From: an uncultured Acidobacteriota bacterium | Lineage (GTDB): Bacteria > Actinomycetota > Acidimicrobiia > Spongiisociales > ZC4RG35 | Assembly (NCBI GenBank): GCA_963828465.1 | Contig: CAWHEU010000022.1 | Coordinates: 128,001-192,000 of the forward strand | DNA length: 64,000 bases | Direction: 5' to 3' | Shown here: positions 946 through 4,502 of the stretch, piece after piece | How the letters are laid out: every line of letters begins with the position of its first letter | Position numbering within the stretch: the first letter of the stretch is position 1 | Notes under the pieces: generated by a model | What the model was told of the DNA's origin: nothing | Databases searched by the model: none | What the model saw: the letters and a program-made list of their open reading frames with translations, nothing else | Program-made: the position numbers and the translations under genes

Positions 946-1236
946 TCAGCCTTCGGTGACCGCCACAGAGTCGAGGATCAGCTCGGCGTAGAAAGCCGGC
1001 CAATGCAGTTCCGGATCCTCGTTCGCCCGGAACTTCTCATCCGCCTCCTGCAGCCACGCCGTGATCTCCTCGACCGTGGGCTCGAAGCCGACGAAGGAGC
1101 CCATATCGGGCTGAAGCCGGATGGCGTACCACTCAGCCCATCGAGGGCTCGGGTCGCTTCCGTGGGACGCGTGGTGTTCCCTCGCCGTCTGAGCGAGGAG
1201 GTGCCGCAATTCTGTCACTTGATTCGGGTCTGCCAT
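946..1236 (-). CDS. hypothetical protein (96 aa) with an internally duplicated helical WxxWYA/WxxFYA unit
   Basis: Clean ORF. TAACCT -10-like hexamer 8 nt before the ATG. Repeats WAEWYA and WPAFYA. Confidence 0.75.
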   Translation of the reverse strand: MADPNQVTELRHLLAQTAREHHASHGSDPSPRWAEWYAIRLQPDMGSFVGFEPTVEEITAWLQEADEKFRANEDPELHWPAFYAELILDSVAVTEG

Positions 1237-1330
1237 GACTCTGGAGGTTAGAAGTTGGCCATTGCTAGCCCTTATCCGATGGGGTCGCGAAGAAGAGAGC
1301 TAAGTCGCGAAAATTCATCTGCGGTTCAAC

Positions 1331-1520
1331 TTGCTCCGTGAAGAAGGGCAGACCTATGGTGGCGGAGCCGACTTGGAGGCAACTCCAGATCGGAGTCGAA
1401 GTGACCGAGAGGTGACTTTGATACCTCGCTGGGAGACCAGTCCTTCGGGGCTGGAGTGCCAGCAAGGTCGAGAACCCCGAGAGGGTGAGGGCTTCGGCCA
1501 GCACTCCCTCGGGGTTTTTC
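1331..1520 (+). ncRNA. candidate structured small RNA of unknown family
   Basis: Five consecutive hairpins; four are capped by GCAA, GAGA, cUUCGg and cUUCGg tetraloops. The last has a U5 tail. It is intergenic and both flanking genes are on the opposite strand. Confidence 0.7.
1473..1519 (+). terminator. intrinsic terminator closing the candidate ncRNA
   Basis: AACCCCGAG (1473-1481) pairs with CTCGGGGTT (1508-1516), with a UUCG apex and a TTTTT run at 1515-1519. Confidence 0.75.
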
Positions 1521-1570
1521 GCGTCACGGGACCCCCACTGATTTGGGCTCATTTGGGTCCGAGGAAGTGT

Positions 1571-2197
1571 TCAGCTCTCGAGTCGCGCTGCGAGTCCCGC
1601 GATGATGATCTCTAGCCCGAATGCGAATTCGGCCCCGAATTCGCACTTGGCGAGGTACGGGGCGAGCGCCGCCACATTGGGGAACACCGAGAGGTCGGGG
1701 ATGTTCGACTCCCACCCGTCCTTGTCCTCACCCCCCGACATCTGCTGAAACGCATACCCCATGGTGTGACTGGCCAGCATCTGCCAGGCGTGGTGCGAGT
1801 CCTCTTCCGAGAAGCCGGCGGCGCGGAAGAGCCCAAGGACTCGGTCCATGAACCGGAGCGAAGACGGCCCATAGATGCCCCGCTGCATCAACAGGTTGAC
1901 CATCCACGGGTGCTCGACGAACTGGTCGAGGGCGGCCAGGGCTGTCTCACGGATCGCGACTCGCCAATCGGAGTCGGCGGCGGGAAGAGGTATGGAACGA
2001 AACACGTGGTCGATCATGCCGTCGAGGATGTCGTCCTTCTTCTCGACGTGGTTGTAGAGCGACATCGCCTCCACCCCGAGCTCGGCTCCGAGCTTTCTCA
2101 TGGAGAGCTCTTCGACCCCGCCGCTGTCAGCCAGGATGACGGCGGCATCGATGATCCGGTCCCGGGTCAGGGGAGTCCTGGTCGTGGTGCTGGTCAT
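1571..2197 (-). CDS. TetR/AcrR family transcriptional regulator (TetR_C-type C-terminus)
   Basis: HTH LSMRKLGAELGVEAMSLYNHV; C-terminal EFAFGLEIII. Divergent from the MMPL gene. Confidence 0.93.
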   Translation of the reverse strand: MTSTTTRTPLTRDRIIDAAVILADSGGVEELSMRKLGAELGVEAMSLYNHVEKKDDILDGMIDHVFRSIPLPAADSDWRVAIRETALAALDQFVEHPWMVNLLMQRGIYGPSSLRFMDRVLGLFRAAGFSEEDSHHAWQMLASHTMGYAFQQMSGGEDKDGWESNIPDLSVFPNVAALAPYLAKCEFGAEFAFGLEIIIAGLAARLES

Positions 2198-2255: not shown

Positions 2256-2291
2256 CGAGATTTCCCCGGTATGCCACGAGGAGCGGAGCAA

Positions 2292-4502
2292 ATGTCATTC
2301 ACCCAAGCGCTGGCCCGAGGCAGCGGCCGACGACCCTGGAGGACGGTGATCATCTGGGTCCTGGCCATGTTGGCGGCCGTGGCACTTACCTCTCAACTGC
2401 TGGGCGATGCGCTCACCAGCTCGATCACCTTCACCGACGAGCCGGAATCGATAACTGCGTCGAACCTGATCGAGGAGGTCAGGGGAGAGCCAACAGACAC
2501 CGAATTCGTGGTGGTGACCTCAGAAGGGATCGACATCTCCGATCCGGTGTATGCCGCCTATGTCACCGAGATCGAATCCACTCTTCTCGGTTTGGGGCCC
2601 GATGTGGTGACGAGTGTCGGCACGTATCTATCCGAGACCGGACCCGTCTCAGAATCCGGCCTGTCGGCCCTCCTTCCCGTCGTGGTCGCCGGTGACGGGG
2701 TCGACGAAACAGGTGTGAATGCGGAGGTGGTGCGGGACACATTGGCGGAGGTCCCGGCGCCAGATGGCTTTCAGGCACTGATGGCAGGCCCGGCGACGTT
2801 GAACAGCGACTTCAACACGATCGCGGAGGAGGATCTCCGAACTGGCGAGACGATCGGCATCGCAGTTGCGCTCGTCGTCCTGGTGCTCGTGTTCGGGTCG
2901 GTGGTGTCCGGAGTGATCCCTGTGATCCTGGGCGTGGTGGCCATTGGCATCGCCATGGGACTGGCGGCGCTATTGGGGCTGTTCATGGACCTGAGCTTCT
3001 TCATCACCAACATGATCACAATGATCGGTCTCGCCGTCGGGATCGACTATTCACTGTTCATTGTCTCCCGCTATCGGGAGGAGCGTCTCCATGGTTTCGA
3101 GAAGCTCGACGCCATCTCGCGCGCCGGCGCCACCGCCACGAGGGCCGTCTTCTTCTCGGGGCTGACCGTGGTCCTGGCCTTGGTTGGTCTGCTGATCCTG
3201 CCCAACACCCTGTTCCGGGCCCTGGGTCTCGGGGCCATTCTCGTGGTTCTCGTGGCCGTGCTCGCCTCGATGACCCTCCTCCCCGCGGTGCTGTCGCTGC
3301 TCGGCGACCGAATCGAGTCGCTCCGGGTTCGACGCCGTCGGACCATGGACGAGCAAGGTCGGATGTGGGATCGAATCACGAAGGTCGTCATGGGCCGGCC
3401 CGTCCTGAGCATCGTGTTTGCCGGAGGCATCCTCCTTCTCGCGGCCTCCAGTTTGTTCTCGATCAACAAGGGCCTGTCCGGCGTGTCGACCCTCCCCGAC
3501 GAGATGGAGTCGAAGCAGGCGTTCGAGATCCTGGCAACCGAGTTCGCCGGAGGATTCACCTCACCGATCGAAGTCGTGGTGACGGGGTCGGACATCCCGG
3601 ACACCCTGGCCAACCTCGAGTCCGACGTGGCTGCTGACGGGGGATTCGGGCCGGCCACCATCGACCCGTTGTCGACAGACGACGTGACCGTCCTGTCGGT
3701 GCAGACTCTTGGTGACGTCAATTCGATCGAGTCGCAGGAGGCGCTGCGGCATTTGCGTGCGGACATCGTCCCCGGAGCGGTCGTTGGCGCGACGGAGGTC
3801 TTCGTGGGAGGCGAGACCGCCATCACCGTGGACTTCCTCGATCAGGTCGACGACTACACCCCGATCGTGTTCACCGTGGTGCTCGGGCTCAGCTTCATCC
3901 TCCTGATGCTTGCCTTCCGCTCGTTGGTCATCCCCGCGAAAGCGATTGCCATGAATCTGCTGTCCGTGGGTGCTGCCTACGGCTTGGTGGTGGCGACGTT
4001 CCAGGCCGACGTAGGTCCGGCTTGGATCAAAGAGTTCGCCGGCTTCCTCGGTTTCGAACAGGTGGAGACCATCGAGGCCTGGCTGCCCTTGTTCCTGTTC
4101 TCGATCCTCTTCGGCCTCTCGATGGACTACCACGTGTTCTTGCTCTCGAGGATCAAGGAGCGATTCGACCAGACCGGGAACAACACCGAGTCGGTGGCTT
4201 ACGGTCTCCGCACCACCGGTGCGCTCATCACGGGAGCGGCAATCATCATGGTGGCTGTATTTGCCGGGTTCGCCGCTGGGCGCTTGGTGATGTTCCAGCA
4301 ATTGGGATTCGGGTTGGCGATCGCAGTCCTCCTCGATGCCACGATCGTTCGCTCGGTCCTGGTGCCGGCATCGATGAAGCTGCTGGGCAATCGGAACTGG
4401 TACTTCCCGTCATGGCTCGAGTGGATCCCGAATATCAGCATCGAAGGTCACATCGACGATGTCGTACCCCAGGCGGACCCGGTCGAGCGCGCGCCTGCCT
4501 GA
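2292..4502 (+). CDS. MMPL family (RND-like) transporter
   Basis: Motifs IGLAVGIDYSLFIVSRYREE and FGLSMDYHVFLLSRIKE; many TM segments. ATG at 2292 follows a GGAG RBS. Confidence 0.95.
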   Translation: MSFTQALARGSGRRPWRTVIIWVLAMLAAVALTSQLLGDALTSSITFTDEPESITASNLIEEVRGEPTDTEFVVVTSEGIDISDPVYAAYVTEIESTLLGLGPDVVTSVGTYLSETGPVSESGLSALLPVVVAGDGVDETGVNAEVVRDTLAEVPAPDGFQALMAGPATLNSDFNTIAEEDLRTGETIGIAVALVVLVLVFGSVVSGVIPVILGVVAIGIAMGLAALLGLFMDLSFFITNMITMIGLAVGIDYSLFIVSRYREERLHGFEKLDAISRAGATATRAVFFSGLTVVLALVGLLILPNTLFRALGLGAILVVLVAVLASMTLLPAVLSLLGDRIESLRVRRRRTMDEQGRMWDRITKVVMGRPVLSIVFAGGILLLAASSLFSINKGLSGVSTLPDEMESKQAFEILATEFAGGFTSPIEVVVTGSDIPDTLANLESDVAADGGFGPATIDPLSTDDVTVLSVQTLGDVNSIESQEALRHLRADIVPGAVVGATEVFVGGETAITVDFLDQVDDYTPIVFTVVLGLSFILLMLAFRSLVIPAKAIAMNLLSVGAAYGLVVATFQADVGPAWIKEFAGFLGFEQVETIEAWLPLFLFSILFGLSMDYHVFLLSRIKERFDQTGNNTESVAYGLRTTGALITGAAIIMVAVFAGFAAGRLVMFQQLGFGLAIAVLLDATIVRSVLVPASMKLLGNRNWYFPSWLEWIPNISIEGHIDDVVPQADPVERAPA

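Follow-up and report, generated by a model that had tools for sequence, protein, structure and literature searches.

A probable new family of structured RNA genes in one order of Acidimicrobiia, with an upstream dual box in common with dnaA

What is encoded in the gap between two minus-strand genes of this uncultured member of the Acidimicrobiia? We consider it probable, at roughly 0.55, that positions ~1366–1523 on the plus strand of the window (the whole stretch of DNA that was analysed, 64,000 nucleotides in length) constitute an independent gene for a stable, nearly fully paired RNA of ~155 nt, which would act by binding a protein and would be made together with dnaA. The components of this reading differ in strength. 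That the locus is a genuine gene for a trans-acting RNA of a new family we regard as very likely; that the RNA works through protein binding is a model-based proposal to which we attach even odds. The RNA fold is conserved, is oriented along the plus strand and covaries unusually strongly, which makes this a well-supported new family of structured RNAs. The original prediction, made from the sequence of this stretch, had placed a free-standing, trans-acting RNA here, and this view was upheld, in that the RNA has a putative promoter and terminator of its own, is non-coding and shows strong covariation. Every sequence feature named in that prediction is present, position for position.

Table 1. 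Coordinates of the RNA gene, its control elements and its neighbours (window positions unless a contig of the source genome is named).
Feature	Position	Strand	Remarks
Gap containing the RNA	1237-1570		334 nt; flanked by two minus-strand genes
Gene for a 96-aa protein, divergent neighbour	946-1236	-	Without Pfam family; start codon 49 nt from box 1
TetR-family regulator gene, convergent neighbour	1571-2197	-	Pfam TetR_N and TetR_C_1
Upstream box 1, distal part of the dual box, TCGCGAAG	1285-1292	+	Near-invariant in 25 same-genus orthologs; flanks variable
Upstream box 2, TCGCGAAAA	1305-1313	+	20 nt start-to-start from box 1; 17-18 nt before the -35 hexamer
Putative -35 hexamer, TTGCTC	1331-1336	+	TTGC invariant in 25/25 orthologs; 5′ arm of the originally predicted P1
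Putative -10 hexamer, TATGGT	1355-1360	+	TAnnnT kept in 25/25 orthologs
P2 hairpin	1368-1393	+	10 pairs, two one-base bulges; GCAA (GNRA) loop 1379-1382
P3 hairpin	1395-1422	+	11 pairs, internal mismatch; GAGA loop 1407-1410
P4 two-part helix	1423-1468	+	Conserved 4x4 internal loop, 1433-1436 versus 1455-1458; UUCG loop 1444-1447
P5 signature terminator hairpin	1470-1519	+	20 pairs, A-C mismatch, 2x2 internal loop; U5 at 1515-1519
CGCG tetramer directly after the U run	1520-1523	+	Kept in 21/25 orthologs and in most family members
Dual box before dnaA	Contig 20: 158213-158245	-	About 340 nt upstream
Dual box before dnaB	Contig 20: 187515-187542	+	About 190 nt upstream

How were the borders of the gene drawn? 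In an alignment of 25 same-genus orthologs, conservation is high from ~1361 to 1525 and stops abruptly past the U run and the CGCG tetramer. The two TCGCGAA boxes precede the promoter at a spacing of two helical turns, the 18-nt spacer after the −35 hexamer shows no conservation, and the −10 hexamer occurs as TATGGT (18 orthologs), TAACGT (3), TAAGTT (2), TAAGGT (1) or TATTGT (1). From this pattern we deduced a putative −35/−10 promoter of the sigma-70 type, with a transcription start that is predicted at about 1366–1368. TTGCTC is a weak −35 hexamer, agreeing with the consensus in just three of its six letters, and a simple sigma-70 promoter and terminator scan of 1150–1650 called nothing. 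The original prediction had included a first hairpin, P1 (1333–38/1363–68), within a plus-strand transcript of ~190 nt ending near 1519. All six pairs of P1 are kept in just 5 of the 25 orthologs, its four variable pairs form in 47 of 100 cells and show no compensatory change, and its 5′ arm consists of the −35 hexamer and spacer. Therefore, because P1 is not kept and the conservation is that of a promoter followed by an RNA gene, we placed the RNA at ~1366–1523, about 155 nt, and P1 is better regarded as promoter DNA. The start codon of the gene for the 96-aa protein occupies the same position in orthologous loci. When read on the minus strand, the CGCG tetramer with the U run resembles an inverted copy of the upstream box.

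The fold itself was evaluated at three levels. First, the plus strand of 1331–1520 folds with −107.3 kcal/mol (z = −7.06; 0 of 200 shuffles are as good), and its minimum free energy structure reproduces P1–P5. Second, a genus alignment covering window positions 1361–1527 in the 25 orthologs (24 distinct rows) was compared with a four-helix structure of 57 pairs: 97.1% of cells form pairs, and both sides have changed in 17 of the 57 pairs. None of 500 shuffles reaches the observed values on four of five measures, and the fifth, which counts further standard pair types, is matched by 271 of 500; when the structure is slid by 1–3 columns, only 33–54% of cells are paired. RNAalifold gives the same helices independently from the orthologs. 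Third, a covariance model built from this alignment retrieved 59 clear members of the short type (53 distinct) at loci across the order, in which 93.0% of cells are paired and 45 of the 57 pairs are compensatory, the alignment being fitted to the covariance model, which favours its pairing somewhat. In this wider set, none of 500 shuffles matches on any of the five measures, and the slid controls lie at 41–54%. The covariation among acidimicrobial homologues that had been proposed as a check on the original prediction is thus present within the genus and beyond it, and of the five hairpins described there, P2–P5 (1368–1519) are conserved with covariation in 24 of 24 genus genomes, P1 alone being no helix.

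Each of the four hairpins contributes to this result. P2 is 100% paired in the genus, with 4 compensatory pairs, and all ten of its pairs are compensatory in the wider set; the same 5′ module is common to all three paralog types. P3, the outermost pair of which is weak, is 87.9% paired with 6 compensatory pairs in the genus, and 85.1% paired with 11/11 compensatory in the wider set; its GAGA loop never varies within the genus, and conservation is still at least 90% across the wider S1-type set. Within the genus, the outer helix of P4 (9 pairs) has 2 compensatory pairs and the inner helix (7 pairs) has 3, and 15 of its 16 pairs are compensatory in the wider set (outer 9/9, inner 6/7). P5, the tip of which is GGC-UUCG-GCC (loop 1493–1496), is 99.6% paired in the genus, with 13 of 20 pairs invariant and 2 compensatory. 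Outside the helices, letters conserved to at least 90% make up the P3 GAGA loop, most of the P2 GNRA loop, and AGA and AGU in the internal loop of P4; most of P5 is also conserved to this degree. G-U pairs are frequent and some are invariant (e.g., columns 124–145), and because these are compatible with the plus strand only, the RNA must be read from that strand, as the original prediction had argued. The hairpins, with GCAA, GAGA, UUCG and UUCG loops, are joined by linkers of 0–2 nt, and the RNA therefore exposes almost no single strand. The 5′ tail, of about 2–7 nt, is variable, and the sole long-range pairs proposed (columns 2–162 and 3–161) never vary and include letters upstream of the predicted start.

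We considered several known kinds of element. A possible ORF of 19 codons (1356–1415) had been pointed out; it opens within the −10 hexamer, with an ATG that 18 of the 25 orthologs retain. Because the ATG is lost in the other 7/25 and 8/25 carry a 2-nt deletion in the P4 loop, we deduced that the stretch is not coding. As had been noted, no gene follows on the plus strand, the next one being the convergent TetR gene, so the RNA is not a riboswitch or leader; the terminator hairpin has no evident competing fold. The statement that no recognised RNA family is involved also held: Rfam 15 gave no match at the gathering score in the whole window, a permissive scan of 1200–1620 (E up to 10) gave 5 weak matches, none near its gathering score (the best, mir-BART17, at 19.7 bits versus 70), and a scan of the paralog and array loci gave none. 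A split or divergent SRP RNA was rejected, since the SRP RNA sits elsewhere in the source genome (contig 20: 130493–130592). The 6S RNA model (RF00013) has no match in the window and none in the source genome at E up to 1; because this model also misses a Corynebacterium control, the vacant 6S role in the source genome is weak evidence. The same kind of search found the 16S rRNA in that genome.

Is the RNA confined to this locus? When the gap was used as a BLAST query against relatives, 24 of 24 same-genus genomes (a count that includes the unpublished genome G018) proved to carry it, at 77–95% identity. The source genome, of 3.07 Mb and 92% complete, contains three copies of the unit, a number on which BLAST and the covariance model agree, namely the window gene and two paralogs, A and B, lying 1.7 kb apart on contig 18. 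The two copies on contig 18 are of 147 nt (z = −4.73) and 357 nt (−208 kcal/mol, z = −6.76), are rich in tetraloops, and end in the same hairpin as the window gene. Paralogs A and B are separated by a DUF222-HNH endonuclease gene (contig 18; L035 4684–5802, minus strand); because the units are 0.2–0.6 kb apart in other genomes, this gene looks like a selfish element that inserted here.

A pattern of the hairpin core matched at least 118 stretches in species-representative genomes, nearly all of them metagenome-assembled genomes titled Acidimicrobiia, often with 2–3 per 8 kb among the matches listed; the invariance of the P5 core in loci L037–L154 is partly by construction, as these loci were fetched with a pattern of that core. 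Of the 126 listed hairpins with at least 300 nt of upstream sequence, 111 have a dual-box promoter upstream on the same strand, against 0/126 in the opposite-strand control. The geometry of this promoter is narrow: among the listed units, box 2 lies 18 nt before the −35 hexamer in 114 of 118, the −35/−10 spacer is 17 nt (65 units) or 18 nt (51 units), and box 1 is separated from box 2 by 20 nt (81 units) or 21 nt (31 units), TTGACG being the commonest −35 hexamer. The distance from the −10 hexamer to the hairpin clusters at ~105–118 nt in the short forms (49 of the 118 listed units) and extends to ~740 nt. The family thus comprises forms of ~150 nt and of 350–500 nt, the middle ranging from about 100 to over 400 nt. 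The short forms are of two types, which have P2, P3 and P5 in common and differ in P4, the second type having a conserved, larger C-rich loop; a P2-like GNRA hairpin also opens the long form. Conservation across families holds for each body type. In its general plan, a unit opens with the dual-box promoter and a GNRA hairpin at the 5′ end, continues with tetraloop hairpins that make up a variable body, and closes with a UUCG-capped signature terminator. In 112 unit bodies, CUUCGG was observed 228 times (21.8 expected) and CGCAAG 89 times (7.4 expected).

The units occur mostly in tandem arrays at one syntenic locus, and some genomes carry five or more in a row. In three acidimicrobial metagenome-assembled genomes (L051, L121 and L129), at least five short-type units stand head to tail at a spacing of 310–430 nt; some of these have equal scores, which suggests recent tandem amplification. 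Some units lack CGCG after the U run, including paralog B, which lies directly before a bPH_2 gene. Among 99 loci, the recurrent neighbours are a divergent PD-(D/E)XK nuclease gene (45), a downstream bPH_2-SHOCT gene (29), a glutamate dehydrogenase gene (24) and a gene for an AMP-binding enzyme (18). This recurrence reflects synteny at a single old locus and says nothing about function. The bPH_2-SHOCT gene that follows the array (L035 4173, minus strand; L028 and L029) seems to be leaderless, a TAnnnT hexamer lying 6 nt before its ATG in the source genome and in two other families. The window copy is an extra, dispersed locus, present in this genus and in a few others related to it. When the class was sampled evenly, the covariance model had matches in 36 of 151 genomes, with 1–4 per genome: in the window's order, 34 of the 36 genomes sampled from seven families, and 1 of 114 from other families, in addition to the source genome. 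BLAST found no copy in five genomes from three further families of the order. Among the sampled genomes, then, the family is confined to one order of Acidimicrobiia.

Is the gene transcribed? Transcription is weakly indicated. Twenty-four sequencing runs from 18 studies, mostly metatranscriptomes of soil and rhizosphere, share 0.12–0.30 of the words sampled from 1150–1650. Assembled contigs from four RNA-library runs cover 1380–1525, and in all four they end at 1523–1525; a contig designated X20 (1299–1456) crosses the predicted start. These contigs are compatible with an abundant RNA that ends at the terminator, although assembled contigs prove neither transcription, strand nor ends, and since they come from relatives, their cover may simply be that of the conserved core; the stretches left uncovered are uninformative. 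In one run (X4), the contig, at a depth of 21, ends at 1523 and continues as an A-rich run that is absent from the genome; this could be poly(A) added in the cell or during library preparation. The same ends would accord with P5 as a candidate intrinsic terminator, in which a stem of 20 pairs is followed by U5. The simple scanner called no terminator because the internal loops of P5 break its stem rule, and the U run is interrupted in most family members.

What might such an RNA do? We propose that it would be bound by a protein in trans, as a decoy, sponge or scaffold, rather than pair with mRNAs. Protein binding is the more likely mode of action because the RNA has almost no unpaired sequence. 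The invariant letters are found in tetraloops, in one internal loop and in the 3′ hairpin, and the candidate recognition sites would be the constant P2 and P5 modules and the internal loop of P4. The 5′ and 3′ hairpins would also shield the RNA from exonucleases; as its ends are closed by stable hairpins and its helices are capped by UUCG and GNRA loops, the RNA should be long-lived. The modular design of the family, in which the promoter and the 5′ and 3′ hairpins are fixed and the tetraloop-rich middle varies, likewise suggests that the ends are recognised and that the RNA is extremely stable. The neighbouring genes offer no clue to the protein partner.

An alternative is a regulatory sRNA that belongs to a group of siblings, as in tandem sRNA families, and acts on mRNAs by base pairing, through a loop or through its short 5′ tail. 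The free-standing layout from promoter to terminator, the several paralogs and the tandem arrays would suit such a role, as would the larger C-rich loop conserved in the second short type, there being actinobacterial sRNAs (e.g., 6C RNA) that act via loops. In the RNA of the window, however, all four loops are stable tetraloops, the linkers and the variable 5′ tail leave little to pair with, and no conserved unpaired stretch resembles a seed. We therefore regard a base-pairing role as unlikely.

The second component of the proposed reading, production together with dnaA, derives from the dual box. A regular expression for the boxes plus promoter matched four places in the source genome, one at each of the three RNA genes and one upstream of dnaB, and a search for the dual box at a spacing of 20–21 nt returned the window gene, paralog A and the upstream regions of dnaB and dnaA. 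Besides the RNA genes, then, the dual box occurs in this genome only upstream of dnaA and dnaB, and at dnaA it adjoins DnaA-box-like sequences. With a weight matrix of fixed spacing, built from 76 family sites, just three sites in the 3.07 Mb exceeded 14 bits, at the window gene (37.0), paralog A (36.8) and dnaA (32.4); dnaB and paralog B drop out because their spacing is 21 nt. Across the order, the dual box precedes dnaA in 27 of 30 loci (counts at dnaA include the unpublished genomes G018, G027 and G038) and the remaining three keep one box; the boxes are fixed at these loci and the spacer is variable. None of 10 genomes from nine other families of the class, all without the RNA family, has the dual box before dnaA. 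At dnaB, the box occurs upstream in 15 of 30 loci, every one of them in the genus. The promoters of rRNA and SRP RNA lack the boxes, and a function as UP element only is therefore unlikely. A methylation or restriction reading of the TCGCGA core was rejected, as the hexamer is not avoided genome-wide (observed/expected 0.84). A literature search for the dual-box motif returned unrelated matches only, the one bacterial case being an E. coli NagC site.

We propose that a DNA-binding factor at the dual box would cause the RNAs to be made in step with dnaA. A more specific version of this idea joins the RNA family with dnaA in a single small regulon, peculiar to the order and controlled through the dual TCGCGAA box, in which the RNAs are coupled to replication or the cell cycle; this version is tentative and, as a whole, improbable. 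Under such a scheme, stable decoys might determine how much of a replication or transcription protein is free, in parallel with the expression of dnaA.

The boxes could also be read as the functional element, such that the dual boxes, together with the inverted box-like CGCG tail, titrate or position a factor that controls dnaA and the RNA is a stable by-product. This would account for a box that is common to dnaA and dnaB and found almost nowhere else, for the equal taxonomic range of box and RNA family, and for unit bodies that vary greatly in length and sequence. A by-product would not be expected to keep its fold and loops; therefore, the selection on the RNA fold (45 of 57 pairs compensatory, with invariant loops and internal loop) argues against this explanation, as does the conservation of each body type across families, and we consider it quite improbable.

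Might there be no separate gene at all, the hairpins belonging on the minus strand to the terminator or 3′ UTR of the TetR gene, or to the 5′ UTR of the gene for the 96-aa protein? P5 is a near-palindrome that could terminate in both directions, and it might indeed also terminate the convergent TetR gene; moreover, the minus strand of 1331–1520 (−83.8 kcal/mol, z = −4.62) beats its shuffles too. Several observations count against this view. First, the G-U pairs fit the plus strand only, and that strand is 23.5 kcal/mol more stable. Second, the promoter, the boxes and the U run are all oriented along the plus strand. Third, the RNA unit is found at other loci with other neighbours, and there is no conservation downstream of 1525. 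We thus regard this explanation as very unlikely. The TetR gene and a divergent gene for an MMPL transporter (2271–4502, plus strand) form an ordinary repressor–efflux pair that has no relation to the RNA.

That the unit is a repeat or mobile element (REP, MITE or similar), as the recurrence of its 3′ hairpin in the genome and the inverted box-like sequences bracketing it might suggest, is highly implausible, given that there is no dispersed repeat of the kind that the original prediction had named as an alternative (3 copies in 3.07 Mb, all syntenic across genomes), that the hairpin pattern matched no viral contig and the RNA no plasmid, and that each unit has a promoter and covaries at the RNA level.

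The Acidimicrobiia are abundant in soil and water and almost uncultured. Our search of the literature for regulatory RNAs of Acidimicrobiia and for sRNAs coregulated with dnaA found none among the records listed, and a word search of one preprint turned up nothing on this class. A compact cis-element links these RNAs to dnaA (in this genus also to dnaB) and to almost nothing else in the genome. The dual box offers a way to identify the factor behind dnaA transcription in this lineage, and leads to a concrete hypothesis, namely that the RNAs take part in the dnaA circuit. If the regulon with dnaA were true, it would represent a new RNA layer in the control of bacterial chromosome replication, together with a new DNA-binding factor.

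How does this RNA compare with known systems? Likeness to 6S RNA or Ms1 had been suggested in the original prediction. Ms1 is described as being about 300 nt long and syntenic with a HAD-hydrolase gene, and "PH" appears as a synteny word for Ms1 in some Actinobacteria (PMC9130861). The RNA of the window, compared with Ms1 by description only, differs in its length of ~155 nt and in its neighbours, a TetR gene and a gene for a 96-aa unknown protein; the bPH_2 gene that follows the main array of the family is a lead to be set beside the "PH" synteny word (PMC9130861). The suggested likeness was not borne out by structure: 6S RNA and Ms1 are rods with a central bubble, whereas the fold backed by covariation consists of four separate, adjacent hairpins with free, unpaired ends. 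What they have in common is that they are structured, non-pairing RNAs, 6S RNA and Ms1 being abundant.

The sibling sRNAs Qrr, LhrC and PrrF have a conserved single-stranded seed and vary little in length. The present family resembles them in its tandem or multi-locus paralogs with a common promoter logic and terminator, but differs in that the ends are conserved, the middle ranges from about 100 to over 400 nt, and there is no seed. 6C RNA is a small, hairpin-built actinobacterial sRNA with C-rich loops; unlike it, the RNA of the window has no C-rich loop and no Rfam match.

The closest working analogy is with the sponges of the Rsm/Csr systems. RsmX/Y/Z and CsrB/C have several paralogs with their own promoters and an upstream activating sequence, multi-hairpin bodies and intrinsic terminators, and they bind a protein in trans without pairing, presenting GGA motifs in hairpin loops to CsrA/RsmA. 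The RNA described here has no sequence or Rfam relation to them, and its loops are GCAA, GAGA, UUCG and UUCG; the five GGAG tetramers counted in the original prediction are present, but they lie in stems or in the internal loop of P4, and none is in a hairpin loop. In its several paralogs, its presumed dependence on an upstream sequence and its construction from hairpins, the family nevertheless follows the same general design, and a role as a protein sponge is possible.
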